Positions 2,081 through 51,282 of a DNA stretch of 52,666 bases are shown piece after piece. The position numbers were made by a program, and so were the translations under genes. The stretch comes from a virus (taxonomy: Duplodnaviria; Caudoviricetes): the IMG/VR virus record IMGVR_UViG_3300007276_000066, positions 1 through 52,666 of that record. One strand, written 5' to 3'. The first letter of the stretch is position 1, and each line of letters starts with the position of its first letter. The notes below the pieces were generated by a model. The model saw only the letters and a program-made list of their open reading frames with translations. It was not told where the DNA came from and searched no databases.

Positions 2081-2111
2081 GTAATATACGCTTACTTATT
2101 CAACCTGTCAA
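2081..2111 (-). promoter_or_regulatory. sigma70 promoter overlapped by an operator-like palindrome
   Basis: TTGACA-ggttgaataagtaagcg(17)-TATATT; GTAAT-N5-CTTAC at 2081-2095. Confidence 0.75.
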
Positions 2112-2910
2112 CAACTATTTTTGACTCTTGAATAAAACCACTAAAATCCTTTTTTGCTGAGCCCTTAGCGTATAAGCCAACAATAAAAGGTTGATTGATT
2201 AAATCGTGTTTTTTTGCGTCCAAAAATCGCAGATCGGTGTCGTCCCCGTTTATAACTGGTAAGCCCTTAAAAGTCTCTGGAATCTCACCGCGAAAAACTA
2301 CGCTTGCGCCTACTGAGTGCTCCCTCACTGCATTCAATACGCTTACAGAATACTTTACACTTGCCCCCGAATAGCTTGCAGTTAAAGCGTAATTTTTTGG
2401 CGCTCTATCTAGCATGTGCATATTCTTAGTGTAGTCGTAAAATTGTAATTCTGGGAAGTGATCAAAAATGTTTTGATTTTTGCCATTCATTAAAAATGGC
2501 TTATTTGTATAATCTACGTCGCTTGTTCCATTTAGTCGAACCGCTGGCGTCATGCCTTTATTTTTTGCCTTTACAATCAAGCTCTCAATTTCTTTATATA
2601 AAGCAATCAAGAAATCATTTTGCTTGGTTATTAATGAAACCGATTTGTTGAGGCGCGATTGCTGAACACTGTTAAATGACCCGCGCCCCGCGCTATATAG
2701 GCAAGCTTCAGCGCATCCCGCTGTTTTTGCATTGGCACATAATGTCCCTTTTTTCATTAGGTGTTTAAATGCTATCTGATCGGGTGCAAGGTAACATATA
2801 CCAGTCAAATAATTGAGCTTTTCGCCCTTTACCGTTTTACTATCTGAACCGATAGAAAGCAGACTATTTAGTCCAGCATTCCTTAAAGCTTGTTTTTTTG
2901 TGATAGTCAA
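2092..2910 (-). CDS. gp88-like protein (radical-SAM-like Cys cluster)
   Basis: LC-x6-C-x3-CL-x3-GRG, VRLNGTSD, FYDYTK and GDDTDLRFLD motifs, typical of the phage gp88 family. Confidence 0.75.
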   Translation of the reverse strand: MTITKKQALRNAGLNSLLSIGSDSKTVKGEKLNYLTGICYLAPDQIAFKHLMKKGTLCANAKTAGCAEACLYSAGRGSFNSVQQSRLNKSVSLITKQNDFLIALYKEIESLIVKAKNKGMTPAVRLNGTSDVDYTNKPFLMNGKNQNIFDHFPELQFYDYTKNMHMLDRAPKNYALTASYSGASVKYSVSVLNAVREHSVGASVVFRGEIPETFKGLPVINGDDTDLRFLDAKKHDLINQPFIVGLYAKGSAKKDFSGFIQESKIVVDRLNK

Positions 2911-2948
2911 AATTTCACCGTTTTGATTAGTTGATTTAGTTGATGGGT

Positions 2949-3260
2949 GTAATTTACGCTTACCTATTCAACCTGTCAACAACTATTTCATCTATTTTAA
3001 AAATGGCTTGTTTGCTTAGCCCATAAGGAGCGGGGGCGCGTATACAGTAAGTTTTTCTTACTTGTCAATAGGCAATAGACCGAAAGTGAGATCTATTTTA
3101 ATCGGTGTAATGGTGGCTCTAAAAGGTAATAATCGCTTACAACGGCACTGAGTCGGTTTTAGCTACTTTTGGCTATTGTCAAGCGTTTTATTACTTTATT
3201 TCACCTTATTTTTGAGCCTAATTCCATTCAGGCATAATTCAACCCGTCAAGCATTATTTC
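2949..3260 (-). promoter_or_regulatory. tandem promoter/operator cluster for the terminal gene block
   Basis: Minus-strand TTGACA/TTGACG near 2980, 3068, 3182 and 3250; palindromes at 2949-2963, 3047-3061 (perfect) and 3126-3140. Confidence 0.7.
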
Positions 3261-3276
3261 ATTTATTTTATTTGAG

Positions 3277-3292
3277 CTGTATATAAACACAG
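3277..3292. promoter_or_regulatory. LexA (SOS) box
   Basis: CTGTATATAAACACAG. Confidence 0.75.
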
Positions 3293-3307
3293 TACCGGAC
3301 CATAGTG

Positions 3308-3323
3308 CTGTATGGATGAACAG
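3308..3323. promoter_or_regulatory. LexA (SOS) box
   Basis: CTGTATGGATGAACAG. Confidence 0.7.
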
Positions 3324-3375
3324 TATGTCGATAAAAAACACCGAAATCGACACATGCCACCAAAATACACACACA

Positions 3376-3443
3376 CAAATTGCACTTTTGATCTTTTTCT
3401 CTATACACAAATTGCACTTCTCATCTATACGCAAATTGCACTT
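3376..3443. repeat. three direct repeats of CAAATTGCACTT
   Basis: Copies at 3376-3387, 3408-3419 and 3432-3443. Confidence 0.85.
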
Positions 3444-3531
3444 GACGTTTATTCTTGAGCCCAGACCAGATGATGTTCATGCCATGTCCACGTTCAATAA
3501 TAACGAACAGGTCCCACTCCTGAACACCCAT

Positions 3532-3568
3532 AAAAAAACCCACCAAGATATCTCAAGGTGGGCTTTTC
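3532..3568. terminator. probable (bidirectional) terminator
   Basis: A-run, CCCACC...GGTGGG stem, T-run; closes the long minus-strand operon. Confidence 0.6.
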
Positions 3569-3628
3569 AGGTTATCAACTAACCAACACAAGCAGGACGG
3601 TGAAGACCTGATTGATTTTTAGATACTA

Positions 3629-3817
3629 TCAGTGAATGGTTGGCTTCTCAAGATGTTTGTCTTCCTGAGCTTTATTAGACTGCATTGCCACAAGAGCAGC
3701 AGTGAAACCGCTTATGTATGCGTTAGCCTCAAACTTTGCTATTGCCTCATCACCATTATTGGCAGCTAAGCTAAGCGTGAACGCTTCCATCCATAACACT
3801 TTCATCGACTCGTTCAT
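3629..3817 (-). CDS. hypothetical protein
   Basis: 62-aa ORF in a tightly packed operon. Confidence 0.65.
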   Translation of the reverse strand: MNESMKVLWMEAFTLSLAANNGDEAIAKFEANAYISGFTAALVAMQSNKAQEDKHLEKPTIH

Positions 3818-3822
3818 TTCAA

Positions 3823-7562: not shown

Positions 7563-7882
7563 TTCGCTTGCTCCACATGAAGCGAAGATATCCCAGCACC
7601 AAACAAGGCTTCCTGACAGCTCTGGCATGCGTAGCTATGGCCCGTCAGGACTGCGCTTGCTCCCCTAGCCTTATCACCGGCCAACTTAAGAGCGTCCACC
7701 TCGGCATGACCTTCCTGCTTGCAGATAGACTTACATTTGTCGTACCCCTCTCCCGCCGATCTAGGGCAAACCTCTTGTGGGTTGGCGCACCAGTTAGTTC
7801 CTTTGAAAACGTGGCCCGATGGTGTTGATATAACGCAAACAACATGGGTCTTGGCGCATCTGCCTTTTTCGGTTTTATTCAC
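7559..7882 (-). CDS. zinc-dependent cytidine/dCMP deaminase-like protein
   Basis: HAE and ACQSC motifs; GTG start at 7882 overlaps the upstream TGA. Confidence 0.75.
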   Translation of the reverse strand: MNKTEKGRCAKTHVVCVISTPSGHVFKGTNWCANPQEVCPRSAGEGYDKCKSICKQEGHAEVDALKLAGDKARGASAVLTGHSYACQSCQEALFGAGISSLHVEQAK

Positions 7883-8349
7883 ACAATCACCATGCGGAGC
7901 TGTGACGGAGCAACATACTGCGCTATCCATTCCGACAACTGGGCTATTGCGTGATCCCTTGGCTTGTTTATCTTTCCTATAGCCACCCCTTCCAAATGGT
8001 CTCTGCTGACGGCCAGAGTCTCTGCCAGACCAGTGATGGTGAATCCACCGTATCGAGTAAGCAAAAGCATTGCCAAAGTCCAGTCTATGCAATCGGGATC
8101 TCTAATTGCCCTGCCATGAAATCCAGAATTCTCATTTGAGTAATTGAAAATACTCATTTGATTTACCGCATTCATAATCTCATCAGGATTGGCTTTTGCC
8201 TTCTCTAACTTGGCGGCATTCTTCAATGCGTTGAAAGACTTTCTTTCCGAGGAAATTCTATCCATTTCCTCCATGTGCCGATCTATTAGGCAAGATTTAC
8301 TTACCTCTATGGTCGGCCAAACTGCGTCCATTTGCTGATAACGTATCAT
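7879..8349 (-). CDS. protein with C-terminal XRE-like helix-turn-helix
   Basis: FTITGLAETLAVSRDHLEGVAIGKINKP pattern. Confidence 0.55.
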   Translation of the reverse strand: MIRYQQMDAVWPTIEVSKSCLIDRHMEEMDRISSERKSFNALKNAAKLEKAKANPDEIMNAVNQMSIFNYSNENSGFHGRAIRDPDCIDWTLAMLLLTRYGGFTITGLAETLAVSRDHLEGVAIGKINKPRDHAIAQLSEWIAQYVAPSQLRMVIV

Positions 8350-9894: not shown

Positions 9895-11435
9895 GATCTA
9901 GCTCCTGAATAATTTGATTTCGCTTTTCTAATATTCAAATGTTGAATGTACTTTTTGAAATTCGCGTCTGGAGCAATCTCTGGATGGTTCTTAATTTCTG
10001 GGAGGTTCGGCCATACTCCAGTTCGCTCTCTGTATTTGTGAGCTGCGGCTCCTGACTTCATTCCTTTTGACTCACACCAAGCCTTCATCATTCCATAAAA
10101 GGCTGCTTTCTCATCCACCGGTGTTTTCTTGTTCCAAGCCTTTGAGTCAGCATCCTCGGTTCTCACTATCTCAACCAAGTTAGCTTCCTTGACCGGTATA
10201 TCTGCGCCCCTCGGCACTGATTCGTGATCACACATAGGGCATTTGCGCTGAGCCTTAAATACATGACCGCAATCACCGCACTTAATCTCAGCAGGCTCCT
10301 TGTTTTCACCGTCTTTTTTCTTCTTAAGGTCAGTAATACTTACCTCTGCGTCCAGCGTCCAAGGCATTTCGTCATCAACGAAGCCGTGCTCCATGACGAC
10401 TCCGGCATGATCAATAACATAGGCTAGATCCTTGCTGTCATGAGGCCGTAGAACCCTTCCTACGGTCTGCATGTATCGAACCAAACTCTTTGTTGGCTGA
10501 GCAACAACAGCGACCTGTAGTGATGGAATGTCTAATCCGTAGCTGGCAATATAAACATTGCACAACACCATTGTTTCTCCGCTCGAAACTCGACCAAGAA
10601 TGTCTTTCCTGTCATCGGTCTCGGTATCGCTGTCCATGTGCTCTGCAGGTATTCCGGCGGCAAGAAACTCCTCGCAGACATGACGGCTATGAGCCTTATT
10701 CACGCAAAACACAACAGTCTGCATTCCATCAGCAAGCCTCTTCCAGTTGTGGACAATCCCACCAATCAATTTAGGATCGTCCATAACTTTCGCTAACTGC
10801 TTCTCGTTATAATCTCCGCTAGTCTTACCGATGCTAACACCAGACAGGTCAGGCTCATCTGCGGCATAGTATTTAACAGGACAGAGATAACCCTGCTCGG
10901 TCATTTCCTTCACGGATAGCGGAGAAAGGCAAAGGTCATCGTAGAATATACCTAGTCCCAACCCGCCAGCCCTAGCCGGAGTTGCCGTAAGCCCCAGAAT
11001 GATTGCGCCGCCCTTGTGGTAGCTCTCTAGGATGGCAATTCTTGACTCTGATGTTGACAGATGAGCCTCATCAACAATCACCAGATCCGCCTCAGGCAGG
11101 TCTATGCCTTTTTTCATACATCGGTGATGAAGCGTATCGAAGCTGCAAACTTGGCATCGTGACGGCCAGATTCGCTCTCCCGCCATTATCATGCCTGCAG
11201 CGATACCGTTGGCAGAGAATACCTTGTGGGCTTGATAGATAAGCTCTCGTCTAGGGGCCAAGAAAACAACCCTTTTGTTTTTTGCTAGAGACCCAAATAT
11301 CATCATCATTGCTATCACGGTCTTACCGCCACCGGTTGCAAGCTGAACAATAATCTTCCTAAAGCCCTTACCAATGGATTCTCTTGCGTTGGTAACGGTC
11401 TGTGTTTGATATCCCCTTGGAGTAATGTTTTTCAT
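9891..11435 (-). CDS. superfamily II (DEAH) helicase with C-terminal Zn finger
   Basis: ATGGGKT, DEAH, TAT and QTVGRVLR motifs; CxxC...CxxC. Confidence 0.92.
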   Translation of the reverse strand: MKNITPRGYQTQTVTNARESIGKGFRKIIVQLATGGGKTVIAMMMIFGSLAKNKRVVFLAPRRELIYQAHKVFSANGIAAGMIMAGERIWPSRCQVCSFDTLHHRCMKKGIDLPEADLVIVDEAHLSTSESRIAILESYHKGGAIILGLTATPARAGGLGLGIFYDDLCLSPLSVKEMTEQGYLCPVKYYAADEPDLSGVSIGKTSGDYNEKQLAKVMDDPKLIGGIVHNWKRLADGMQTVVFCVNKAHSRHVCEEFLAAGIPAEHMDSDTETDDRKDILGRVSSGETMVLCNVYIASYGLDIPSLQVAVVAQPTKSLVRYMQTVGRVLRPHDSKDLAYVIDHAGVVMEHGFVDDEMPWTLDAEVSITDLKKKKDGENKEPAEIKCGDCGHVFKAQRKCPMCDHESVPRGADIPVKEANLVEIVRTEDADSKAWNKKTPVDEKAAFYGMMKAWCESKGMKSGAAAHKYRERTGVWPNLPEIKNHPEIAPDANFKKYIQHLNIRKAKSNYSGARS

Positions 11436-12109
11436 TGGAATGGTTCTCCTTGGGGTAAGGAGTTCTGTTTAGTTATTATGGCATCCATTGGAGAGGGAAG
11501 GTTTTGAGCTGTAGCTGTAGCTGTAGCTGTAGCTGTAGCTGTAGCTGTATTACTTCCGAGGGTCTTCGGAGGTTGTTCGGAGGGGGTTGTAAGCCCCTCG
11601 CAAGCCCCTTGCAAGCCCTTTATTTCCTCCATTACCTTCTGTCGCTTATCAGAGTCCATGCCTTCTTTATTCAAGAGCGACACCTCGTAATCAAGTATGA
11701 TTGAAATCATTCTATCTGCCAGTCTTGCGGTGAATCTGCACACCCTCGGCATTTCCACCATAATGTTCACTGAACCCTTAATCCGATTAATGTCGTAGAC
11801 TGGGAATTTATCTAAATGTTTGTTTAGGTAGACGTATTGGGTGTCCTGACAGAACAGACAGAAACTTTTATCGGGATCATCAGGACGGCTTAGTTCTGCC
11901 TTTGCCTTCTTAAGTCTGGCAAAATCATCCCAGCCTAGATCGCTGACAATATATGCGTCAGGGCAATGGAAAGATCCGATCATGTTCTGGTGCTTGCATG
12001 TCTTAAGATAGACAAACACTAACTTTGCATCATCACTAAGATTTCTAAACGCCGGATGCGTCCAAATTGCACAATCTATGGTCCCGTAACTGACTACTTT
12101 TGATTTCAT
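11432..12109 (-). CDS. replication initiation protein
   Basis: IW-x3-F-x2-LSDDAKLVFVYLKTCKHQNMIG N-terminus typical of phage Rep proteins; dipeptide repeat; first gene of the helicase-primase operon. Confidence 0.75.
   Translation of the reverse strand: MKSKVVSYGTIDCAIWTHPAFRNLSDDAKLVFVYLKTCKHQNMIGSFHCPDAYIVSDLGWDDFARLKKAKAELSRPDDPDKSFCLFCQDTQYVYLNKHLDKFPVYDINRIKGSVNIMVEMPRVCRFTARLADRMISIILDYEVSLLNKEGMDSDKRQKVMEEIKGLQGACEGLTTPSEQPPKTLGSNTATATATATATATAQNLPSPMDAIITKQNSLPQGEPFQ
11508..11620. repeat. (GCTGTA)7 tract plus iteron-like AAGCCC(C)T repeats; candidate origin
   Basis: Seven hexamers at 11508-11549 and three AAGCCC(C)T units at about 11591-11620, inside rep. Confidence 0.65.
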
Positions 12110-12163: not shown

Positions 12164-12290
12164 GTATGCAACTCTTACCTTAGCAATCAAATTTATACAT
12201 TGATTCAAATAGGTCAAAGAACCCAAATGAATCACGTTTTATATATCAAATTAAAACGCTATTTGCGTCAACGAAGTAATAATAACTTAC
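12164..12290. promoter_or_regulatory. divergent rep/repressor control region
   Basis: Operator-like GTATG-N5-CTTAC (12164-12178) and GTAAT-N5-CTTAC (12276-12290); TTGACC and TTGACG on the minus strand. Confidence 0.7.
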
Positions 12291-12335
12291 ATTCGCGATG
12301 ACAGCAAGACTTACTTTTAAAAAAGGAGCATAGCC

Positions 12336-12734
12336 ATGTCTAAGTTACATCAAAAGATTAAAGAGGCACGAGCAAGGTCCGGTCTAACACAGGGAGATAT
12401 AGCCAAGGCTTGCGGCCTAACTAGGAACGCTGTGACTTTATGGGAGTCGAGCAATCCAACTCGAAGAACCGCTCCCCAAATCCGCGAGATTAACATTCTG
12501 TGCAAAATGACAGGAGCCCCGAGGGACTGGCTTTTGTCAGATGAGAGCGGACTTAACGATGCTTGGGCTGTAGGCAGCAACTCTAAACTAAGCCCTGCCG
12601 AGGAAGCGTTGATTGTCACTTTCCGGCTATGCAGTCCGACCAAACAGGCCGCGATAATTGCGTTTCTTGAGTTCACCGCCAGCACTAAAGCGCCTGCATC
12701 GCAAGGATCAACCACTGAGTCCCGATTGGGTTAA
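12336..12734 (+). CDS. XRE-family helix-turn-helix repressor without S24 peptidase domain
   Basis: IKEARARSGLTQGDIAKACGLTRNAVTLWE; AGGAG ribosome-binding site; C-terminal LSPAEEALIVTFR helix. Confidence 0.85.
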   Translation: MSKLHQKIKEARARSGLTQGDIAKACGLTRNAVTLWESSNPTRRTAPQIREINILCKMTGAPRDWLLSDESGLNDAWAVGSNSKLSPAEEALIVTFRLCSPTKQAAIIAFLEFTASTKAPASQGSTTESRLG

Positions 12735-12900
12735 GTGATTCCTCCAAGCTAGCCCTAAGACTGGCATCGGCAATACCAGCGACAGCCATCTTTATTTTCA
12801 ACAGCGCGTCTATATCGCCCTGAGTTCTGCTCTTGGGCTTTACGGCTCCAGAGACTATTCTTAGGTCTGCTTTTGAGACAGCGTTTCGAACTACCTTCAT
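12685..12900 (-). CDS. hypothetical protein convergent with the repressor
   Basis: 71-aa ORF overlapping the repressor 3' end by 50 bp; upstream TTGACG-N17-TACGGT. Confidence 0.5.
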   Translation of the reverse strand: MKVVRNAVSKADLRIVSGAVKPKSRTQGDIDALLKIKMAVAGIADASLRASLEESLNPIGTQWLILAMQAL

Positions 12901-12967
12901 ATTTTACCACTTTAAGTTTTACTGAAAGTCAGCACCGTACTCGCATCAATCGGTATCGTCAACCCCC

Positions 12968-13037
12968 CGTAAGTAATTATTAATTACTTACGTAAGATAG
13001 TTATACTTTCTCATATTCTTGTGATAGTATTACTTAC
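12968..13037. promoter_or_regulatory. operator cluster with 25-bp palindrome
   Basis: CGTAAGTAATTA-T-TAATTACTTACG at 12968-12992, with further GTAAG/CTTAC half-sites to 13037. Confidence 0.75.
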
Positions 13038-13076
13038 CTATTGGGAATCAACCCAAACTAACAACGGTATTTAATT

Positions 13077-13313
13077 ATGCAAGTAAGAATTACAAGTCCG
13101 GACTGCCTAGCTGGTCGATTCAAGACTGGGGACATCGCAGAAGTGATTAAACACCACCCGAGATTAACAGAGTTGCGTAAGTGGAACTATCTTGTTGAGT
13201 TCCCAAATCCGCGTTTTTGCGGTACTCAGCCATTAGGTCGTCGCCACCTATTTACATCAAGCCAAGTCGAGAAGATTGGTAGTGCAGTTTCAATACAGGG
13301 GCAGACACTATGA
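13077..13313 (+). CDS. hypothetical protein
   Basis: 78-aa first ORF of the plus-strand early operon. Confidence 0.65.
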   Translation: MQVRITSPDCLAGRFKTGDIAEVIKHHPRLTELRKWNYLVEFPNPRFCGTQPLGRRHLFTSSQVEKIGSAVSIQGQTL

Positions 13314-13441
13314 TTAGAGGAGCAGTTTACTCACCGCCACATAAAGTAAGGCGGCATCAACCAAGAAGGTCTACAACCGTTTTTGACGTAGTTGTTCTAG
13401 CTATTGCTGTACTGGTAATCATGGCCTTGTCATCAATCTAA
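13310..13441 (+). CDS. small membrane peptide (43 aa)
   Basis: ATGA overlap with the previous ORF; ends in VVVLAIAVLVIMALSSI. Confidence 0.5.
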   Translation: MIRGAVYSPPHKVRRHQPRRSTTVFDVVVLAIAVLVIMALSSI

Positions 13442-13467
13442 ACAAAGTATTAATTAGAGGATTTAAA

Positions 13468-14004
13468 ATGCAACAACCAAGCGAAAGTGGCAAGACTCAC
13501 TACCGAAAAGCGTTCAACTCACCCTACCTGTCCAGTGCCGATATTGTCGGGCCGACAGTCTTAACGGTGTCAAAGGCTGAACTTCTGATAGACCAGAGTA
13601 AGCAGTCAAAAGAGTCATTCAACACGATCCACTTCAAAGAAAAAGAGATTCGCTCTGGAGAGCCGTTAAAGCCAATGATCCTGAACGCTGGCAACTCTCA
13701 GATAATGCGAAACCTTTCAGACTCTCATTTCCTTGAGGATTGGGCTGGGCTAAAGATCGCTATTTACGTTGAGAAAAATGTCAAGTTCGGTCGTGATGTG
13801 CGTGATGGTCTGCGTATCAGTCCAGAGGCTCCAGTTGTTGAGTTGCCAGAGCTACTGCCAAGCAACACAGCTAAGTGGAATCAAGCGATCACGGCTTATA
13901 AGCGTGACAAGAACCTGAAAAAAGTATTAATTCATGTCCGCATTTCCTCTGCTAACCAGAAGTTGATTATCGATCAGGCCAAAAAAGAGGAGACGAAAAA
14001 ATGA
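13468..14004 (+). CDS. conserved phage protein, candidate single-strand annealing protein
   Basis: KTHYRKAFNSPYL...PMILN motifs; directly upstream of the exonuclease and ssb. Confidence 0.6.
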   Translation: MQQPSESGKTHYRKAFNSPYLSSADIVGPTVLTVSKAELLIDQSKQSKESFNTIHFKEKEIRSGEPLKPMILNAGNSQIMRNLSDSHFLEDWAGLKIAIYVEKNVKFGRDVRDGLRISPEAPVVELPELLPSNTAKWNQAITAYKRDKNLKKVLIHVRISSANQKLIIDQAKKEETKK

Positions 14005-14837
14005 ACCATACCAACAGCCAAGTTGATGGCGGAGTCGTGCTTAAAAACGGCTTCATGTTCCACGACATAATTCAAAACGAAGAGCTTTGGTACGCAATGC
14101 GCGGATCAAGGTACACAAGCTCAAACGGCAACAAGATCATGGCGAGTAGCCGAGATTACTCAGTGGTGGCTTTAGGCAAGACTGAGTTTGCTGTAACAAA
14201 CAATAAAACCAAGTCCGCGCTGAAAGCCCGTTTTGAATTCAAGGTCGATGCAGAGGCTCACATCCAAGAGCTTATGGCTAAAACGGTGAAAGGATCTTTT
14301 GCAGACAGCGCAATGAAATATGCCGGTGATATTGCTTTGGAGCAGATTACAGGTACCGCGATTGCCAGCAACTACAGTAGTGGCGACATGGAGCGGGGAC
14401 ACGCTGAAGAGCCATACGCTAGAGCTCTGTACGAGAAAGACACCTTCTGTAGCGTTGATAACGGTGGGTTCTTCTGCAACGAGTTTGTTGGGTGTAGTCC
14501 AGACGGCCTTGTTGGTGATGACGGCGTGATTGAAATCAAGTCAGCAATCCCTTCGGTTCATCGTGAGCGAGTCCGAAAGCAGTCTTACGATTCAGCATAC
14601 AAATGGCAGTTGATCGGGAACCTACATTTTACTGGACGGGAGTGGATTGATTTCATTAGTTACTGCTCTTCATACCCAGAAGGCAAAAGATTATTTGTCG
14701 TGAGGTTGTGGGCAAAAGATTTACAGGAAGAGTTCACTCTTCTCGATGATCGCTTGGAAGACTTTAAGGATCTGGTCTTGTCTGCCAAGGACGAGATAAA
14801 CAACGGTGTTTACATAAATATTGGGGAGTCGTTATGA
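14001..14837 (+). CDS. YqaJ/lambda-exonuclease family nuclease
   Basis: MERGHAEEP, GCSPDGLV, IEIKS and YKWQL motifs. Confidence 0.9.
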   Translation: MNHTNSQVDGGVVLKNGFMFHDIIQNEELWYAMRGSRYTSSNGNKIMASSRDYSVVALGKTEFAVTNNKTKSALKARFEFKVDAEAHIQELMAKTVKGSFADSAMKYAGDIALEQITGTAIASNYSSGDMERGHAEEPYARALYEKDTFCSVDNGGFFCNEFVGCSPDGLVGDDGVIEIKSAIPSVHRERVRKQSYDSAYKWQLIGNLHFTGREWIDFISYCSSYPEGKRLFVVRLWAKDLQEEFTLLDDRLEDFKDLVLSAKDEINNGVYINIGESL

Positions 14838-15129
14838 GCAATCAAGAATTAGCAATAATCGAAATACCTGATGATCAGGCGATGTACGCCTACCCCCGCA
14901 CACTTAACGCTAAACGTATCGCTTAATTGATACATAACTCTAGCGTAAAGCAATGAAACACGAACATAAGACATTTGCATGAATTTTGAACGGAGTGAGC
15001 ATGAGTAACGAAGACATAGAGAACTGGCTATACGTGGAGCAGATGAGCGAGGTTTAGTGCAGTCCGGAAACACCAAAAACGTATTATTGAATTTAACGAA
15101 ACAGCAACACAAGAAAAGGAATACAAGTA

Positions 15130-15570
15130 ATGGCTAGAGGCATAAATAAAGTAATTTTGGTGGGAAATCTTGGGAATGATCCAGAGATCAAACATTCAGC
15201 TAACGGGTCCGCTATAGCAAATATAAGCATAGCAACAACTGAAAGCTGGAAGGATAAGAATACCGGCGAACAGCAGGAGAGAGTTGAGTGGCACAGGGTT
15301 GTAATGTTCAACCGGCTTGGAGAGATTGCAGGGGAGTACCTGAAAAAAGGATCTCAGGTTTACATCGAAGGCAAGCTGCAAACGCGCAAATGGCAAGACC
15401 AGAGCGGTAATGACCGTTATTCGACAGAGGTTGTGGCTAACGAAATGCAAATGTTGGGTGGTCGCGGTGATGGATCTTCTAATGGAGCACCACAGCGTTC
15501 ACAGGGAGCCACAAAGCCAGCCCAAGCAGCCCCGCCAACGAATGACTTTGATGACGATATCCCGTTCTGA
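15130..15570 (+). CDS. ssb: single-stranded DNA-binding protein
   Basis: [15 protein letters not shown]...DFDDDIPF. Confidence 0.97.
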
Positions 15571-15637
15571 GAAAACAACTCCTCAAGGCCGGTCAGTGGA
15601 TAACCTGACCGGATCAAACAAGATAACGAGAATTAAA

Positions 15638-15829
15638 ATGGAATTTTTTTACAAGATAGTGGACGGAATCGCTCTCGATAAAATTGAGGCTGACGATATT
15701 CAGGAAGCCGCTGAGATATCAGGGTACTGGGATTATCACGTTGAGTCAGACTGTCTGCTGGAAGTTACTGGCGGCGAAGAGTTTGATGAAGGTATCGATA
15801 TTGTTTTTTCGACAAGCATTGATTACTAG
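15638..15829 (+). CDS. small acidic hypothetical protein
   Basis: Start refined to ATG 15638 (MEFFYKIV...); very D/E-rich. Confidence 0.55.
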   Translation: MEFFYKIVDGIALDKIEADDIQEAAEISGYWDYHVESDCLLEVTGGEEFDEGIDIVFSTSIDY

Positions 15830-15863
15830 AGCACAAGGCTCAGGAACTCATAAAGGTGATGGA

Positions 15864-16217
15864 ATGAGCGAAACAAAACTAAAGCCGTGTCCTTTTTGTG
15901 GTGATACTGAATCCCTTGAGGTATGGCACGACTCTAGGACAATCATTCACCCAGCGTACAGAGTTGGTTGTGATAATTGTGGCGCGCATTCTGGATACAG
16001 CGACAGAGGTGACCATGTGGAAGCATGGAACACTCGCACCGACGTAGCAGATGAAATCATTGCGATGATTGAGGAATCAATGAACGAGCTTCACCGAACC
16101 TACATAAACGCGCAAGGAACGTCTTTATTTACTGCGGCAGAGATAAGGCTAGATTTATCCGAGGACTTATTGGAACAAGCAAAAGCAATCAAGGCTAAGG
16201 GTGAGGTGAGCGAGTGA
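15864..16217 (+). CDS. Lar-like restriction-alleviation protein
   Basis: LKPCPFCG...CDNCGA...WNTR; start refined to ATG 15864. Confidence 0.75.
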   Translation: MSETKLKPCPFCGDTESLEVWHDSRTIIHPAYRVGCDNCGAHSGYSDRGDHVEAWNTRTDVADEIIAMIEESMNELHRTYINAQGTSLFTAAEIRLDLSEDLLEQAKAIKAKGEVSE

Positions 16218-16402
16218 GTATAATTAAAATCTGGCTAAAAGACTTTTGTTGCCGATGGCACATTAAACATGATTTAGAGAATATTTACACAACAAATATA
16301 CATGGTGGTTCAAGAATACCTACGTGTAAACGCTGTGGATATGAAAACATATCAAATGGTTATTGGTGGGTAGATAAAAAGAGGTATGGGGTTATCCCGT
16401 GA
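16214..16402 (+). CDS. small Zn-binding hypothetical protein
   Basis: C-x5-H...CKRCG; 4-bp overlaps with both neighbours. Confidence 0.6.
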   Translation: MSIIKIWLKDFCCRWHIKHDLENIYTTNIHGGSRIPTCKRCGYENISNGYWWVDKKRYGVIP

Positions 16403-16698
16403 CATCACCTTACCTGACACAAACTGACGCTATGACCTATGCCTGTAAGAAGGATCGCGGGTCATTTATTGCATGGGCCAATGAGAATCGATTGACTGGA
16501 AGAAAAGTGGGCGGTAACATGTTGTACGTTAAAGCTGAACTGATAAATGCAATCGAGGCCGGATGTCAACCATTACCAAAAGAGGTGAATCGTGGGTTCT
16601 CAACTGGTCGGAAGGTGGCAAGCAATATCGTAGATCCCTTGGCAGGGTGGCGAAAGCAGAAGCCGAGAAAGCCCGTTACTCAAAGGAGCTTGAACTAA
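16399..16698 (+). CDS. excisionase-like winged-HTH protein
   Basis: YLTQTDAMTY...RKVGG..LY pattern; overlaps the integrase start by 136 bp. Confidence 0.55.
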   Translation: MTSPYLTQTDAMTYACKKDRGSFIAWANENRLTGRKVGGNMLYVKAELINAIEAGCQPLPKEVNRGFSTGRKVASNIVDPLAGWRKQKPRKPVTQRSLN

Positions 16699-17522
16699 GT
16701 GAACCTAACATTAATAGCGCACCATATTTCGACTATTACGCAGCCGAATATCTGGACTGGTATTCAGAGCAATACCCCGCAAGTCTTGAGCGATGCAGAC
16801 AGATTATCATTAGCCACCTTGCGCCATTCTTTGGAGACAGAGTTCTCTCGGATATCGGAGGAAGGCTGGTCAAAGATTATCAACTTACACGAAGGCAAGC
16901 TGCCACCGGAACGTACCTTAAAGAGTTCCGAACTCTTAAAGCCATGCTTAATCGTGCAGTCGAATGGGAGGTTATTGCAGAGAACCCCATATCACACATT
17001 AAGCCTCCAAAAGACAGCAACAGCAAGCCCCCACATTTCTACAGTGTGGAGGAGCTGGTCAAGATTTACGATGCGGCCTACCAGTTCCCTTGCCAATGGA
17101 AGTTCATGGCTAACACCGGAATTCGTTTAGGCGAAGCAATCAATTTCAGGAAGAGCAGAGATGTCAAAGAAAACTCCATACACATTATCAGCACCGAAGG
17201 TGCGCGTACCAAGTCTGGACTTTGGCGAGAAATCCCTTTGTTTGACGGTGCCAGAGTGGCCCTTGATGGAGTTGAGGAAAGATTGTTCAGCTCACACCCC
17301 AAGTCCGTCAGTCGTGCTTTCAGGAACGATCTTCTTCGGTCAGAAGTCGGTGGAGGCTCTCTTCACAGCCTTAGACACACTTTTATCAGCCACCTCTTCA
17401 TGTCCGGAAAGTTCTCAGCAGTAGAAATTCAGCATTGGGCTGGGCATTCCAGCCTAACAACAACCCAACGATACGCACATCACATGCCGCGCAAAGTTGA
17501 CACAGGAGCATTATCATTATGA
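16563..17522 (+). CDS. int: tyrosine integrase
   Basis: TGIRLGE (R), RTKSG (K), HSLRH, WAGH and TQRYAH (Y). Confidence 0.95.
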   Translation: MSTITKRGESWVLNWSEGGKQYRRSLGRVAKAEAEKARYSKELELSEPNINSAPYFDYYAAEYLDWYSEQYPASLERCRQIIISHLAPFFGDRVLSDIGGRLVKDYQLTRRQAATGTYLKEFRTLKAMLNRAVEWEVIAENPISHIKPPKDSNSKPPHFYSVEELVKIYDAAYQFPCQWKFMANTGIRLGEAINFRKSRDVKENSIHIISTEGARTKSGLWREIPLFDGARVALDGVEERLFSSHPKSVSRAFRNDLLRSEVGGGSLHSLRHTFISHLFMSGKFSAVEIQHWAGHSSLTTTQRYAHHMPRKVDTGALSL

Positions 17523-17776
17523 ATAAAACTATCCTCGATAGGATTGCGGAGGAAGTGCATGCGCGAAAAAGAAAAAACGAACCGTCAGCAACCATCGTAT
17601 ACATTGGGCAGCAGGAATCGTCAGAGTTAATGGGCGCAATGTCGGCTGACATAATGGAATTATTCGAAGTAGCAACGAAAGCAGATCCACCAAGAGTTTA
17701 CGGCATGTCTATTTGTGAGATTGACTCCCGTTCCCACCTATCTCTGTCAGATCATGCGTGTGCTAACATGTGCTAA
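17519..17776 (+). CDS. hypothetical protein
   Basis: 85-aa ORF with ATGA overlap with int. Confidence 0.6.
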   Translation: MNKTILDRIAEEVHARKRKNEPSATIVYIGQQESSELMGAMSADIMELFEVATKADPPRVYGMSICEIDSRSHLSLSDHACANMC

Positions 17777-17844
17777 ACATACCCCTAAATACCCCTAAAT
17801 AGGCACATTTAACCCAACAGAAGATCGGCCAAGTGATCGGCCAA
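17759..17844. repeat. paired direct repeats, candidate Int arm/Xis sites
   Basis: TGTGCTAA x2 (17759, 17769), ATACCCCTAA x2 (17779, 17789), GATCGGCCAA x2 (17823, 17835). Confidence 0.7.
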
Positions 17845-17853
17845 ACACCCATT

Positions 17854-17890
17854 AAAAAAGCCCTAACTCGTTGAAAGTTAAGGCTTTTTT
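17854..17890. terminator. bidirectional terminator next to the attP core
   Basis: AAAAAAGCCCTAAC...GTTAAGGCTTTTTT inverted repeat; would lie 3' of the restored tRNA. Confidence 0.75.
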
Positions 17891-17893
17891 AGT

Positions 17894-17944
17894 TGGCGTC
17901 CCCAAGGGGATTCGAACCCCTGTTACCGCCGTGAAAGGGCGGTG
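17894..17944 (-). other. attP core: 3' 51 nt of tRNA-Glu(TTC)
   Basis: Minus strand CACCGCCC-TTTCAC-GGCGGTAACAGGGGTTCGAATCCCCTTGGGGACGCCA: anticodon arm, T arm and CCA, with no 5' acceptor strand or D arm. Confidence 0.92.
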
Positions 17945-18091
17945 CGTAACACTTAAGTCATTGTTTTTATTATCTTATTTTGATTTAGTCCGCTATGATG
18001 GGCTATCTCTTTCTATAAAGGTAAGTCTAGCTTGCATTAGATGTTAGTTTAGATTACTATAACATTCTATCAACTAACCCAAAGGACTCAC

Positions 18092-18541
18092 ATGAAAAAA
18101 CTAATAATCGCCGCCACTTTAACCATTATGGCCTCATGCTCAGCACAACCAGCTTTCGCGCTTAAATTGAGCCCCGAGCAAACAGACACGTTCTTGGGTG
18201 GGATCTCAGAAACTACCGTCACCGCGAAGGGTGATCAAACATACCAAATAACATTCAAGGCCAAGCTTGTTTCGAATCAAACTGAATCGATGAGCGTCCT
18301 AGTGGGGAGCGGCAAGTCAGCACAGGAGATTACGGTCACGCCTTATATACAATATTACTCTGTGACCGTTGGCACTCCTCCTGAGGATAGCTACGTTTAT
18401 ATCAGGGCTTTTAGAGGCGAGGCCGAATTGTTCTTGCTGGAAGGAGATACGATTTATTCATACAGTAATGCAGATGTAGACCACACAATCATTATACGGA
18501 ACCTTAACGTGACGGAGGTTTCTGAAAAACGGTGTCCATAA
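18092..18541 (+). CDS. exported protein with signal peptide
   Basis: MKKLIIAATLTIMASCSAQPAFA; AAGGA ribosome-binding site; operator-like site at 18021-18035. Confidence 0.75.
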   Translation: MKKLIIAATLTIMASCSAQPAFALKLSPEQTDTFLGGISETTVTAKGDQTYQITFKAKLVSNQTESMSVLVGSGKSAQEITVTPYIQYYSVTVGTPPEDSYVYIRAFRGEAELFLLEGDTIYSYSNADVDHTIIIRNLNVTEVSEKRCP

Positions 18542-18574
18542 CCCAGAACCATACCAGCCATGAGAACAAAGCAT

Positions 18575-18603
18575 TGGACTGGCAGTAAGCAATACTTACA
18601 ATG
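18575..18603 (+). promoter_or_regulatory. promoter with perfect GTAAG-N5-CTTAC site
   Basis: TTGGAC-N17-TACAAT; palindrome at 18585-18599. Confidence 0.65.
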
Positions 18604-18979
18604 CTTGATCCTTCAACTTACCGGATCAATTTCATGGAAACCTCAGAAGATTGGGCCAGCGCAGCATTGTTTTTGCTTGCTGTCCTAGCCGTAGCTTACG
18701 CTGGGTCGATTTAACCCGCTTAATACAGCCTATAGTGGTGTTATAGCGGGATATCTCGACTTGGCAATACCAATGGTAGCCTAAAGCATGTCACCCCCCG
18801 TATGGCATGCTTTTATTTTGCATTAACTGTTGACAGGTTGAAGGCGATATGAGACACTCTCTTTGTTGAAACAAAACAGCCATGAACAACGGCAACTATC
18901 CGGACATGGGTCAGATCAAATACAACCCAACACTAAGAACCATTGAGCACGGAAGTGACACTAAATTTTTGGAGAAAGC

Positions 18980-19207
18980 ATGAAGGCGGAAAATAATAAT
19001 ATGGTTAAGCAAAAAACTAGGCACGGATATAATTACTCTCAGCTACTTAACGAGGCCAAGCCTGTTCAAACGATAGGAGGGCGGTGGAAGAGCATCGTAT
19101 CGATACGCCAAGGCAGATACACTGAAGAATGGAATCTGGTCACCGCCGATGGTGGGCTAATCCTTAGCCAGTCCTTAAGTGATGTAACAATATTCATTAC
19201 TCAATAA
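18980..19207 (+). CDS. hypothetical protein
   Basis: 75-aa ORF with GGAG ribosome-binding site, downstream of the TTGACAGGTTGAA promoter at about 18830. Confidence 0.6.
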   Translation: MKAENNNMVKQKTRHGYNYSQLLNEAKPVQTIGGRWKSIVSIRQGRYTEEWNLVTADGGLILSQSLSDVTIFITQ

Positions 19208-19214
19208 ATCAATT

Positions 19215-19269
19215 AATTGTTGACAGGTTGAAGGGAATGTGGGAGAATAAGTTGTGGTTGCAATAAAGC
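19215..19269 (+). repeat. 55-bp exact promoter repeat, copy 1
   Basis: Identical to 19597-19651; contains TTGACA-N17-GAGAAT. Confidence 0.92.
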
Positions 19270-19294
19270 GATCTCAAAAAAACGGTGAAACAGA

Positions 19295-22773: not shown

Positions 22774-22788
22774 GTAAGTAAAACTTAC
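22774..22788. promoter_or_regulatory. perfect GTAAG-N5-CTTAC palindrome
   Basis: GTAAGTAAAACTTAC in the 47-bp gap before the A1-like gene. Confidence 0.75.
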
Positions 22789-39255: not shown

Positions 39256-39270
39256 GTAAGAAAATCTTAC
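39256..39270. promoter_or_regulatory. perfect GTAAG-N5-CTTAC palindrome
   Basis: GTAAGAAAATCTTAC between the tail tube and chaperone genes. Confidence 0.75.
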
Positions 39271-41796: not shown

Positions 41797-42774
41797 TTAA
41801 GCGTTGCTTACTTTAACGATTGCAGTAGGGCGTGTGCAGATATGCAGAGGGTTGGATTGAGTCTCCACAATCCAGCCTTTGCCGCCCTCTTTTTCCCAGC
41901 CTTTAGAGTACATTGGCAAGCCCATTGTGTTAACGGTCTCGTTGTAGTCAGCAGGAGCGTAATAAGATTGAAACAGTCCGCTAACGCCTTCTGGAACCGC
42001 ATACGCAGTGTTATCTTCAATTTTCACAAGAGAAGTACCTTCGTACTCTTCAAAGATAGCGCCGCCATAAGAAAACCCAGCGCGAACGTCATCACGGTTC
42101 ATGCCGCTATCCATATAGCGTGAATACTGCTCTTTCACTTCAGCGTTCTCAATGAATGCGTCAAAGAAAGTAGGTGAGCACAAGAAGCGAACTCCCTTAA
42201 AGCCTACACCGCCCAATGCAGTCTTGATCTGTCGCTTAATTGCAACAACATCAGTACGAGGAGTGGTTGTAGCTACAAGAATGTCAGCCGTTGTCTGGCT
42301 CACGCTCATTTCCGTGAAAAGGTTCAACAGTACGCTTGTGCCGTCCGCATCATAAACGATCCCTTTAAGCGCACCCATACGCAAATGCTCTTGGGTGTAC
42401 ATAATGTCGTCGTGATGCTTTTTGACCTTCTTCGCCAATTTAGCTGAAACTGCCTCAGTCTCGCTTTGCGTTCCGAATGCGCGAACATTCTGGAGTTCTG
42501 ACGCTTGGACGCTGGAGCGTTGAGGAAGGTGTATTGTGCTGAAGTTGCGAGACTTGTACTTACTGATCTCGCGCTGTTTTGGCTCTGAGCCACGCGCAGC
42601 AGCAGGAACCAACTCAATAGAATCAGCGCCGAAATCCAAGCGAACATCAGTTGTATCAATGCCCTCATTTGAGAAATAGCCCAACTCAGTAATTCGCTGC
42701 GGAATGTACTCAATATCCTGTACGGCGGCGGTTAGTGTTTCAAGCTCGAAAACGTCCGTGTTAAAATTTGCCAT
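41797..42774 (-). CDS. major capsid protein (lambda gpE family)
   Basis: LTAAV, EHLRMGALKG, APADY..TVNT.G and ETQSNPL motifs. Confidence 0.92.
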   Translation of the reverse strand: MANFNTDVFELETLTAAVQDIEYIPQRITELGYFSNEGIDTTDVRLDFGADSIELVPAAARGSEPKQREISKYKSRNFSTIHLPQRSSVQASELQNVRAFGTQSETEAVSAKLAKKVKKHHDDIMYTQEHLRMGALKGIVYDADGTSVLLNLFTEMSVSQTTADILVATTTPRTDVVAIKRQIKTALGGVGFKGVRFLCSPTFFDAFIENAEVKEQYSRYMDSGMNRDDVRAGFSYGGAIFEEYEGTSLVKIEDNTAYAVPEGVSGLFQSYYAPADYNETVNTMGLPMYSKGWEKEGGKGWIVETQSNPLHICTRPTAIVKVSNA

Positions 42775-49382: not shown

Positions 49383-49413
49383 GTAAGATATACTTACCTA
49401 GACGCCCTGTCAA
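49383..49413 (-). promoter_or_regulatory. promoter upstream of the packaging genes with perfect palindrome
   Basis: TTGACA-N17-TATCTT overlapped by GTAAGATATACTTAC (49383-49397). Confidence 0.75.
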
Positions 49414-49426
49414 GAACTTTGTGGAA

Positions 49427-49735
49427 TTAAGATACCTGCAGGCACTCGCGAATAAACATTCTCACTGACGGGGAGCCGGAGAATTCTTCACCACCCCCCA
49501 AAAATTCAATTTCGCCATCGACCCCATTACCATCAATAAGTTCGCCAACCATCGCATCCCACTGAGTCGTTCCGCCGTGAGTTACCCCGTAGCCGGATCT
49601 ATCCGCCTCATCGAGGAGTGATTCTCTAAGCTCTAAGGCTGTTTGGCATGACATTGGGTGACTCGCATTGTTTTTGTTGTTGGTTATTAAGTGAGTTAAT
49701 CTTACCCCACCTGTCCAAGGTCTATCTGCACACAA
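49427..49735 (-). CDS. hypothetical protein (start uncertain, perhaps the later MSCQ)
   Basis: Acidic C-terminal part looks coding; the 5' part contains an operator-like site (49691-49705). Confidence 0.5.
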   Translation of the reverse strand: MCADRPWTGGVRLTHLITNNKNNASHPMSCQTALELRESLLDEADRSGYGVTHGGTTQWDAMVGELIDGNGVDGEIEFLGGGEEFSGSPSVRMFIRECLQVS

Positions 49736-49754
49736 ATTGAAATCCTAGAGTTGC

Positions 49755-49910
49755 TGGGGTAAGGAGTTCTGTTTAGTTATCGTGGCATCCATTGGAGAGG
49801 GAATCAGTTGTAGTTGTAGCTGTAGCTGTAGCTGTAGTTGTAGCTGTTATACTTCCGAGGGTCTTGCAAGGGTCTACGAACCCCCTTCGAAGGGGCTTGC
49901 AAGGGGCTTC
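49755..49910. repeat. diverged second copy of the rep C-terminus/origin segment
   Basis: 49755-49865 aligns with 11451-11566 and includes seven G(C/T)TGT(A/T) hexamers. Confidence 0.9.
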
Positions 49911-50021
49911 CAAATAACCATTCCTTCTTTGCCAAATAGACCTATAAACCGACCTTGTTACACAGTTTGGGATTGTTTTGGCCCACACCTCTATTTGTAG
50001 GGTTGATGTTGGCCCCATCAC
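49773..50021 (-). pseudogene. rep-derived fragment ORF
   Basis: Shares KTLGS and the TA-repeat with Rep, then shifts frame; lacks the Rep N-terminal domain. Confidence 0.5.
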
Positions 50022-50272
50022 CCATAAGCCCCAAATCGACCAGCAATTAGCGACGCGATTCTATGTAATTCAGCATCACACCATCGCCGGATAATGTAGC
50101 TCCTAGCAAGGCTGATAGCTGTAAACCAAGCCACTAAAACCATGTCAGTTCCGAACGTAATGTGTATGTCGAACATGGGGAATAATATCAACTGGCTAAT
50201 TAAGGCAATCACCGATCCGATGATTACGTTTATGGCTGCCTCGATTAGAGATTCCACTTTTGACTGTTTCAT
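50018..50272 (-). CDS. conserved two-helix phage membrane protein
   Basis: QSK..SL.EA..NV.IG...FTAIS..RSYIIRRW pattern. Confidence 0.8.
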   Translation of the reverse strand: MKQSKVESLIEAAINVIIGSVIALISQLILFPMFDIHITFGTDMVLVAWFTAISLARSYIIRRWCDAELHRIASLIAGRFGAYG

Positions 50273-50469
50273 TTCGACCTCAGGCTGGCTAGGCTATTGC
50301 GTAACTTTTCCGCCCTGAGCATATTGTGAGACTCCATTAACTCACCCTCAAGATCCTCTATGCGCTGGGCCGCATCTAGGAATATTTCAGGAGACGTAAT
50401 CATGTGGGTTCGCTTACTCACTAGAGCTGCGTTACCCCTCAACCTTTCAACCAATGTGCTCATACTCAC
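50269..50469 (-). CDS. hypothetical protein
   Basis: LVERLR...AAQRIE.LE pattern; 4-bp overlaps. Confidence 0.65.
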   Translation of the reverse strand: MSMSTLVERLRGNAALVSKRTHMITSPEIFLDAAQRIEDLEGELMESHNMLRAEKLRNSLASLRSK

Positions 50470-50705
50470 TCTCCTCTCTTCCTTGCTGCTCTCACAACAG
50501 AATCTAAACTCACACCCCAGTTCTCAGATGCCCAGAGCTTATATCTGGTTCTTCCGGAACCTTTCGGACCTTTCACCCTTGGAGGCAGTCCGAGTAAAAA
50601 AGCATCAAGCATTTTCTCGCTTATCTTGCCATTCGGAGCCCTTCTCATCATTGGGTTTAGGATCATTTCGACCATATCTTTCATATTTACGACCGCCGGC
50701 TGCAT
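50466..50705 (-). CDS. hypothetical basic protein
   Basis: Fits the operon packing. Confidence 0.55.
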   Translation of the reverse strand: MQPAVVNMKDMVEMILNPMMRRAPNGKISEKMLDAFLLGLPPRVKGPKGSGRTRYKLWASENWGVSLDSVVRAARKRGE

Positions 50706-50869
50706 GGTGAACTCCAGCCAATATCAACAGCGAAGAAAAACATAGTTAGGGTAAGGGCTCTCATTTCATACTTCTTTGAGTGGGTCAGCGCGAACAAGTG
50801 TCGCTCAGACCATCCACCGGAAGTCCTAGTTATCACTCCAGTTATCTGAAACTCTTTTGAAATTACCAT
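50687..50869 (-). CDS. hypothetical protein
   Basis: ATG 50869 after AACGGTGAA ribosome-binding site. Confidence 0.5.
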   Translation of the reverse strand: MVISKEFQITGVITRTSGGWSERHLFALTHSKKYEMRALTLTMFFFAVDIGWSSPCSRRS

Positions 50870-50895
50870 TTTATTCACCGTTATTGTTTAGTTGA

Positions 50896-51043
50896 TTTAT
50901 TTGAAGTGTGGGCTGGTCGGTTAACTCCAGCTTTCTTCGATTAGTGCGTCCATCTAATCAACCGATACGGCATGACCGCTCTTATGCGTTCACTTAATGC
51001 CTCAGGCTTCTTCGATTCTCAGCACCGCCACACATCAAATAAA
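50896..51043 (-). ncRNA. structured RNA, C4/IsrK-like architecture
   Basis: 16-bp closing stem (one mismatch) enclosing several hairpins, the last being GCTGG-AGTTAACCGA-CCAGC. Confidence 0.55.
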
Positions 51044-51249
51044 ACTACTTTTAAAGTGGGGTGATCAATTTATAGGTTGATCACCCCTTAAAGATCCGGT
51101 TTCTCTGCCATACCGGAAGATGGATATTGCCCTTTCTGAATCTCTTACAATGCGCCTCATCAGGTAATGGCGCTAAACCTGTTAACTAGCCCATGATTGG
51201 CCACCCCTCGTTTTGGTTGTTAAGTGCAAGTCTGGTTCGTTCCAGAAAG

Positions 51250-51282
51250 GTAAGATTAACTTACCTGTTTGAGATAAGCAAG
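51250..51282 (-). promoter_or_regulatory. promoter with perfect palindrome over the -10 box
   Basis: TTGCTT-N17-TAATCT; GTAAGATTAACTTAC at 51250-51264. Confidence 0.7.

Follow-up and report, generated by a model that had tools for sequence, protein, structure and literature searches.

What is the role of a short inverted repeat that recurs between the genes of a phage genome, from the early region to the structural genes? The phage in question, uncultivated and temperate, is the IMG/VR virus record IMGVR_UViG_3300007276_000066 (Duplodnaviria; Caudoviricetes) of freshwater metagenome origin, which is rated 100% complete and whose entire 52,666 bp are the window analysed here. The repeat is the 15-bp dyad GTAAG-N5-CTTAC. 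In the original prediction, it was read as an operator through which a short XRE repressor silences many separate promoters, including those of late genes, in place of an N/Q cascade. In our analysis, the dyad, which can be widened to GTAAK-N5-MTTAC and often has AG just upstream, is on balance probably the operator of a dimeric helix-turn-helix (HTH) repressor of the phage, most likely the XRE protein. The motif, its spacing, its placement and its overlap with promoters are seen directly in the window.

First, the dyad is far more frequent than expected. Six perfect copies are present at 3047, 18585, 22774, 39256, 49383 and 51250, as had been reported, whereas 100 dinucleotide shuffles contain 0.04 on average, in the same range as the approximately 0.05 estimated originally, and none of them reaches six. 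When up to one mismatch is allowed, 16 sites are found against 1.39 expected. The enrichment is specific to the spacing: from N0 to N30, six copies occur at N5 and none or one at each other spacing. Among all 4-, 5- and 6-mer inverted repeats at N0-15, GTAAG-N5-CTTAC is ranked first (P = 4e-11). Chance or composition as the source of the motif is ruled out by the shuffles together with this ranking. Spread by a repeat element is also ruled out by the unrelated flanks of the perfect sites, with two exceptions, the 7-nt CAAACAG common to 39256 and 51250 and a paralogous cassette at 2081 and 2949.

Second, the copies avoid genes. By our own gene map, intergenic sequence makes up 9.9% of the window, and it holds all six perfect sites, 7 of the 10 one-mismatch sites and 7 of the 30 two-mismatch sites; five of the latter seven fall in the two intergenic regions that flank the XRE gene. 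The relaxed form GTAAK-N5-MTTAC, in which G or T is allowed at the inner end of each half, gives 11 sites spread over 2-51 kb, and every one is intergenic. The seven one-mismatch sites listed originally (2081, 2949, 3126, 12164, 12276, 18021 and 49691) are all present.

The anatomy of the site resembles that of an operator. The half-site centres are 10 bp apart, one helical turn, and the central five bases of the perfect sites are A or T at 29 of 30 positions against a background of 54%, both of which are typical of a dimeric HTH protein on one helix face. Since the core is a perfect dyad, the binder would be a dimer. Read along local transcription, GTAAG forms the upstream half of 16 sites out of 17, or of all 17 if 12276, which is in the divergent region, is read on the other strand, and the two bases ahead of it are usually AG (A in 14 and G in 10 of the 17). 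Where a −10-like hexamer overlaps the dyad, it does so in one of two registers, either at positions 8-13 (TAnCTT or TAnATT; 2081, 2949 and 49383) or at positions 13-18 (TACnnT; 22774, 39256, 51250, 3047, 18585 and 12276).

Third, many of the sites lie on promoters. With textbook sigma-70 hexamers as the consensus, each of 19 sites was scored out of 12 by the best −35/−10 pair whose −10 overlaps the dyad, and the scores were compared with those of 20,000 random positions. A score of at least 8 is reached by 7 of the 19 sites versus 3.9% of random positions, and a score of at least 9 by 4 of the 19 versus 0.64%. The strongest example is found ahead of the packaging genes. The perfect dyad at 49383..49397 covers the −10 of a near-consensus promoter on the minus strand, P49413 (TTGACA at 49413-49408, a 17-nt spacer and TATCTT at 49390-49385). 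The small terminase gene follows about 740 nt downstream, and no terminator is predicted on the minus strand over this distance. The claim that a promoter ahead of the packaging genes carries the dyad is supported. Two GTAAG-N5-ATTAC variants (minus-strand reading) behave similarly: that at 2081..2095 lies over the −10 of P2111 (TTGACA-17-TATATT, 11/12), and that at 2949..2963, whose cassette is paralogous to the 2081 one, over the −10 of P2979 (TTGACA-17-TAAATT, 10/12), the promoter of the GP88-like gene. P2111, P2979 and P49413 are also among the best matches of a consensus promoter scan. Further upstream of the GP88-like gene, the perfect dyad at 3047..3061 sits within the 17-nt spacer that follows TTGACA at 3068-3063 (minus; P3068), and a third site, the GTAAG-N5-ATTAC variant at 3126..3140, has no clear promoter (7/12). 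On the plus strand, the perfect dyad at 18585..18599 covers the promoter-like TGGACT-16-TACAAT (9/12; P18575) past the lipoprotein gene near attP. No promoter is seen at 18021..18035, a one-mismatch site with a CTTGC half beside attP (5/12), or, under the criteria used, at the one-mismatch site 49691..49705, for which an intergenic position is probable provided that the ATG at 49654 is the start codon of the 49427 gene. Altogether, the promoters under dyads include replication, recombination and packaging ones. The earlier statement that many sites overlap a −10 box or spacer thus holds for the seven sites that score at least 8, and it does not extend to 22774, 39256, 41797 and 51250.

The same promoter also exists without the dyad. 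The cassette TTGTTGACAGGTTGAA occurs seven times when the related P49413 is counted. In P2111, P2979 and P49413, the dyad lies over the −10, whereas P1162, P18830, P19220 and P19602 have the same cassette with other sequence in place of the dyad. Because the cassette is found with and without it, the dyad appears to be a separable add-on operator rather than a part of the promoter. P18830, P19220 and P19602 drive small genes beside attP, adjoining the lipoprotein gene, and these genes may well be expressed from the prophage. The copies of TTGTTGACAGGTTGAA are located at 1149-1188, 2098-2137 and 2966-3005 (minus) and at 18821-18842, 19211-19232 and 19593-19614 (plus); the cassette heads at least six small transcription units, often with a common leader (ATCAACTAAATCAAC..AACGGTGAAA) ahead of the start codon.

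Units equipped in this way lie beyond a strong terminator. An intrinsic terminator at about 3569-3531 (minus; free energy −23.7 kcal/mol, z −5.1, with a T7 run behind it) closes the replication/nin early operon, so that the units downstream need promoters of their own. Such promoters are present, and several carry the dyad. This arrangement is compatible with replacement of an N/Q cascade, without establishing it. Just downstream of the terminator, 3368-3443 (minus) contains three direct repeats of about 20 nt each (AAGTGCAATTTGYGT...), upstream of a degenerate cassette promoter (TTGACG at about 3248); they could be iterons or sites of another regulator.

Which protein would bind the dyad? The best candidate on sequence grounds is XRE, a protein of 132 aa encoded at 12336-12734 (+), whose gene is flanked by sites on both sides. 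On one side, 12164, 12276 and 12300 cover the promoter of the replication operon and the promoter region of XRE. The one-mismatch site 12164..12178, between the replication operon and the XRE gene, lies over TTGATT-16-CATACT (8/12, minus) and just downstream of TTGACC-16-TAAATT (9/12, minus); GTAAT-N5-CTTAC at 12276..12290, upstream of the XRE gene, has a right half that begins the −10-like TACATT (7/12); and the two-mismatch site at 12300..12314 (+) ends 21 nt ahead of the XRE start codon. On the other side, the cluster originally placed at 12968-13037 proves real. It extends over 12969..13037. A 23-bp perfect palindrome (12969-12991) encloses a GTAAT-N5-ATTAC dyad at 12973 and is followed by two-mismatch sites at 12992 and 13023. 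The cluster occupies the divergent region between a 71-aa open reading frame (ORF; minus) and the operon of the 78-aa product, exonuclease, SSB and integrase (plus), where it covers the back-to-back promoters TTAATT-16-TATACT (plus) and TTGATT-16-TACTAT (minus), with 8/12 each. The site at 13023 covers the promoter-like TTGATT-16-TACTAT of the 71-aa helical ORF (12685-12900, minus). This ORF points towards the XRE gene and shares 50 nt with its 3′ end; if the ORF is real, its transcript would extend through the XRE gene in antisense.

The protein itself is of a suitable kind. XRE matches HTH_3/HTH_31, and by family matching it is the sole recognisable sequence-specific DNA binder of the immunity region; the peptidase S24 self-cleavage domain was not found in it by the same means. 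Among solved proteins, the 434 repressor is the nearest by sequence (E 0.026). The predicted structure, with a mean predicted local distance difference test score (pLDDT) of 75, would contain an N-terminal five-helix HTH domain like those of 434 and P22, followed by two C-terminal helices. Among the fold matches of this model, SinR is at the top (Foldseek E 7e-3, root-mean-square deviation (rmsd) 11.7), with controller proteins, 434 Cro and P22 c2 also found; P22 c2 is superposed with rmsd 2.0 over 63 columns. Matches to the DicA model (E 1.6e-5, 24.7 bits, cut-off 101) and the RstR model (E 4e-5, 23.8 bits, cut-off 80) are below threshold.

Another line of evidence comes from the only retrievable relative of XRE, found on G001, a virus record of 44.3 kb with 64% GC. 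Its repressor is CI-like (HTH plus S24) and adjoins a P22_Cro-like gene. The two proteins are 36% identical over the HTH, and the recognition helix, TRNAVTLWE, is identical. In G001, 6 of the 14 CTTAC/GTAAG pentamers fall within 1.2 kb around the repressor gene (P ~3e-6 per window, ~1e-4 corrected). Three of these sites read GCA(A/C)AG-N5-CTTACTT; one overlaps TTGACA-16-TTACTT, a promoter-like pair read by eye; and the site ahead of the repressor start codon matches the 12300 site of the window at 16 of 24 bases. Thus, G001 loosely ties the recognition helix to the half-site.

From these features, we infer both the binder and its action, as well as any role in the late operon. XRE would occupy one cluster over the promoters of the replication operon and of its own gene (12164, 12276 and 12300) and the other over the divergent promoters at 12969-13037. 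Further dyads would be bound on the −10 or spacer of P2111, P2979, P3068, P18575 and P49413, the last of which lies ahead of the packaging and structural genes. By keeping RNA polymerase off each promoter, one protein may silence many units in the lysogen. At 22774, 39256 and 51250, where a −10-like TACnnT is present without a −35, the bound repressor might guard weak internal promoters or block read-through. Regarding the proposal that XRE silences many promoters directly, the spacing, placement and promoter overlap support the dyad as an operator, and XRE is its best candidate binder.

Several observations weigh against this assignment. All sites adjoining the XRE gene are imperfect, with one or two mismatches, and all six perfect sites are at 5.8 to 39 kb from it (window coordinates). 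The site is also asymmetric relative to transcription, contrary to what would be expected of a plain symmetric operator: the downstream half contains all or nearly all of the mismatches, and a T is present three bases past the site (position 18) in 11 of 17 cases. This asymmetry may arise because the site overlaps the −10 hexamer. About 1.4 one-mismatch sites are expected by chance, and three lie in or on genes, all beyond the original list and each possibly due to chance, namely 8290..8304 inside gene 7879-8349, 10329..10343 inside the helicase gene and 41797..41811 on the stop codon of the capsid gene. The sites at 2081 and 2949 are not independent, since they are paralogous copies of one cassette. 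At 22774, 39256, 41797 and 51250, the promoter scores are 4-6, and promoters there are unsupported because about 29% of random positions reach 6. In G001, the sites have the pentamer and an inner AAG-N5-CTT in common with those of the window without being perfect N5 dyads. A genome-wide network is absent there: AAG-N5-CTTAC occurs only twice in 44.3 kb, and both copies are beside the repressor gene. No close relatives of the phage were found in the searches described below, so conservation offers no evidence for the sites. In addition, a T>C change at 12175, inside the 12164 site, is seen in one low-depth contig (2.2) of another freshwater run and may be an error.

Some of these points would be accommodated if the dyad is a real operator with another binder, either a second phage protein (a Cro-like one, or the 71-aa, 78-aa or 156-aa product) or a recruited host regulator. 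This alternative, which is unlikely but survives best, would fit the distance of the perfect sites from the XRE gene and the imperfection of the adjoining ones. Other binders could also hide among the small proteins, most of which match no family, or in the host. However, XRE has no recognisable competitor in the immunity region, and in G001 the pentamer is clustered at the gene of the relative that shares the recognition helix. The named phage products also give little to follow. The Atlas search provided no DNA-binding lead for the 71-aa and 78-aa products, and the 156-aa product of gene 7879-8349, which has two homologues and had been taken for an HTH protein, has no HTH family match and an unusable model (pLDDT 41).

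The late operon needs separate consideration. The gaps that hold 22774, 39256 and 41797 in the structural operon are 47, 106 and 6 nt, respectively; the AG flank and the mismatch asymmetry follow transcription, and the core is orientation-free. The perfect dyad at 39256..39270 separates the major tail gene from the tail chaperone gene. It lies 21 nt past a strong 12-14-bp hairpin (39324-39292, minus) that follows the former, and the latter is provided with a GGTGA ribosome-binding site of its own. The perfect dyad at 22774..22788 lies 9 nt ahead of the ATG of the A1-like gene (21223-22764, minus) without a −35. This gene has no Shine-Dalgarno sequence, and TACTAT at dyad positions 13-18 would start a transcript exactly on the ATG, which suggests a leaderless message. 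The promoters originally assigned to the tail chaperone and A1-like sites are not supported, as both score 6/12. The sites at 22774 and 39256 could be operators of weak internal promoters, or roadblocks like the stoperators of mycobacteriophage L5. The remaining promoter-poor perfect site, at 51250..51264, has 7-bp arms (AGGTAAG-N5-CTTACCT), lies 30 nt past the stop codon of gene 51295-51531 and has a weak promoter (6/12). About 180 nt downstream of it, in a 415-nt gene-free region, is a palindrome at 51058-51087 with 11-bp arms (GGGGTGATCAA-N8-TTGATCACCCC; as RNA −19.2 kcal/mol, z −4.8), which is not a clear terminator because its T tract is interrupted.

Family matching of the window proteins found no N, Q, cII, sigma or late-activator family, which is weak evidence because most small proteins match nothing. 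The claim of direct late-operon control is only partly supported. A bolder form of it, which we hold only tentatively and consider rather unlikely, gives one dyad two uses by the small dimeric XRE. It would occlude sigma-70 promoters, and it would act as a roadblock or guard of internal starts at the promoter-less 41797, 39256 and 22774 in the 28-kb structural operon and at 51250 upstream, so that a lambda-like siphovirus could run its whole lytic programme from sigma-70 promoters gated by the repressor, without an antiterminator or late activator.

The same sites have also been considered as a phage-specific promoter type, in which an activator bound to the dyad would replace the −35 at TACnnT (22774, 39256, 51250, 3047 and 18585) and would repress where the dyad lies on a strong −10. 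The model for this is the P1 late promoters, where an activator acts in place of the −35. The sequence nnT follows five of the six perfect sites along transcription (giving TACnnT, P ~0.007) versus one of six on the opposite side, three TACnnT sites have no −35, and the T at position 18 and the geometry at 22774, with a start on the ATG of a gene without Shine-Dalgarno sequence, would also be explained. However, TACnnT by itself is weak promoter evidence, and RNA polymerase would cover the dyad centre, at about −17 in one register and −12 in the other, which is a typical repressor position. The strongest dyad-bearing promoters need no activator, and no sigma or activator family was found. We regard this type of promoter as improbable. 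Finally, an RNA hairpin with a 5-bp stem and 5-nt loop, serving in processing, antitermination or translation, has in its favour flanks co-oriented with transcription (CTTACCT 14 times on the plus strand versus AGGTAAG twice), a size like that of boxB-type elements and the position of 22774 between AAGG and a start codon without Shine-Dalgarno sequence, but it is very improbable because the hairpins are weak (−5.4 to −7.9 kcal/mol), the loops are not conserved and the one-mismatch variants break the stem without compensatory changes, and the Rfam scan gave no matches, and the dyads on the −10 of P2111, P2979 and P49413 lie upstream of the starts of those transcripts.

The phage lineage appears to be very isolated. 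Megablast of the window against cultured phages gave no match except for a tRNA-Glu fragment, the large terminase is at most 36% identical to that of any cultured phage, and relatives of the GP88-like protein are scattered. Among 5.8 billion proteins, XRE has two homologues besides that of G001. The XRE search gave one relative (37% identity), on G001, in viral contigs and none in genome contigs, and the alignment scan of metagenome contigs returned the same record; searches with the major tail and A1-like proteins gave no relatives. A back-translated pattern of the recognition helix found only G001 in viral contigs and one spurious non-HTH match in genome contigs. The 7-N5-7 form occurs at no fewer than 112 loci in viral contigs, each on a different contig among the 80 listed, which is taken as chance level. 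Four other freshwater runs contain contigs near-identical to the window, with five single-contig differences outside conserved host-like stretches; being near-identical, they give no information on conservation. Among the sequencing runs listed as containing the phage, none is an RNA data set. A literature search with the motif letters returned, among the matches listed, unrelated papers only.

The genes are arranged in three blocks. The helicase loader, helicase, primase, NinG and GP88-like genes run from 12109 down to 359 (minus), and XRE, a YqaJ-type exonuclease, SSB, Lar and integrase, followed by attP and a block of small genes, occupy 12336-21220 (plus). From 52445 down to 21223 (minus), small genes are followed by lambda-like terminase, portal, protease, decoration and capsid genes, the tail genes and the T5 A1-like gene. 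Identical 13-base ends (1-13 and 52654-52666) suggest a circular assembly cut at that point; across the join there is an intergenic region and a membrane-like ORF on the plus strand (52547-52666 joined to 3-221). The tRNA-Glu fragment is 51 nt long (17894-17944), 98% identical to enterobacterial tRNA-Glu and about 370 nt past the integrase gene, and no whole tRNA is present; it is presumably the attP core. Metagenome contigs of other organisms join at this fragment and then run on as tRNA-like sequence. Directly past attP, the 149-aa product of 18092-18541 has a lipoprotein-type signal (…TIMASC…). A duplicated segment (11451-11614 and 49755-49913; 49 nt at 96%, then an (AGCTGT)n-type repeat) is common to the 3′ end of the helicase-loader gene and to gene 49773-50021, both of which encode alternating Thr/Ala runs. 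Ahead of the late region, a 70-aa product (51955-52167) with two CxxC pairs is zinc-ribbon-like and could be a small regulator.

If XRE binds the dyad, a dyad-symmetric example with a small XRE protein would be added to the few dispersed-operator immunity systems (P1 and L5-like), and the lysogeny repressor would control the packaging and structural operon directly, through an ordinary sigma-70 promoter. The presence of the same cassette with and without the operator is a natural experiment for reporter assays, and the promoter-poor perfect sites of the late operon would bear on roadblock silencing outside mycobacteriophages. If the two uses of the dyad are true, a phage whose attP matches enterobacterial tRNA-Glu would have a dyad-symmetric counterpart of the mycobacteriophage stoperators.

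How does this arrangement compare with known immunity systems? As in lambda, 434 and P22 CI systems, dyad operators flank the repressor gene and overlap divergent early promoters, and the HTH of XRE is nearest to 434 by sequence. In the operators of P22 c2, the inner half-site is similar and the centre is shorter by one base. However, lambdoid operators are confined to the immunity region, while most sites here, including all perfect ones, are elsewhere; XRE also has no S24 self-cleavage domain, and no cro gene lies between XRE and the replication genes. XRE resembles DicA, RstR and SinR in its length of about 130 aa, N-terminal HTH and helical C-terminal part, but with matches below the family thresholds, membership is not established, and no antirepressor has been identified.

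Dispersed operators offer the closer parallel. Besides P1 and L5, they are exemplified by phiC31 of Streptomyces and SPbeta of Bacillus; a literature search on the conserved inverted repeats of phiC31 returned no relevant paper. The C1 repressor of P1 has 22 widely dispersed, asymmetric operators of 17 bp (PMC8546580). Again, one repressor would control separate lytic functions through many operators genome-wide, but here the site is a 15-bp dyad and the candidate is a small XRE protein (HTH_3/HTH_31) instead of a C1-family protein; P1 reaches its late genes via the activator Lpa, whereas here the dyad is on the promoter ahead of the packaging genes. L5-type sites are asymmetric 13-mers, more than 20 in number, bound by a monomer with two DNA-binding domains; they occur at promoters and in short operon gaps, with an orientation that correlates with transcription and on which their block of elongation depends (PMC9283540). 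The sites of the window may resemble them in lying both at promoters and in short gaps of a long operon, with flanks co-oriented with transcription. The two differ in that the sites here, about 11-16 in number, are built on a perfect dyad, and XRE has one HTH and two helices. Thus, judged from its genome, the phage probably joins the dispersed-operator kind of P1 C1 and L5, with the sequence feature itself well supported, and it is set apart from the known cases by its dyad site, its small XRE candidate and the copy on the near-consensus promoter of sigma-70 type that precedes the packaging genes.

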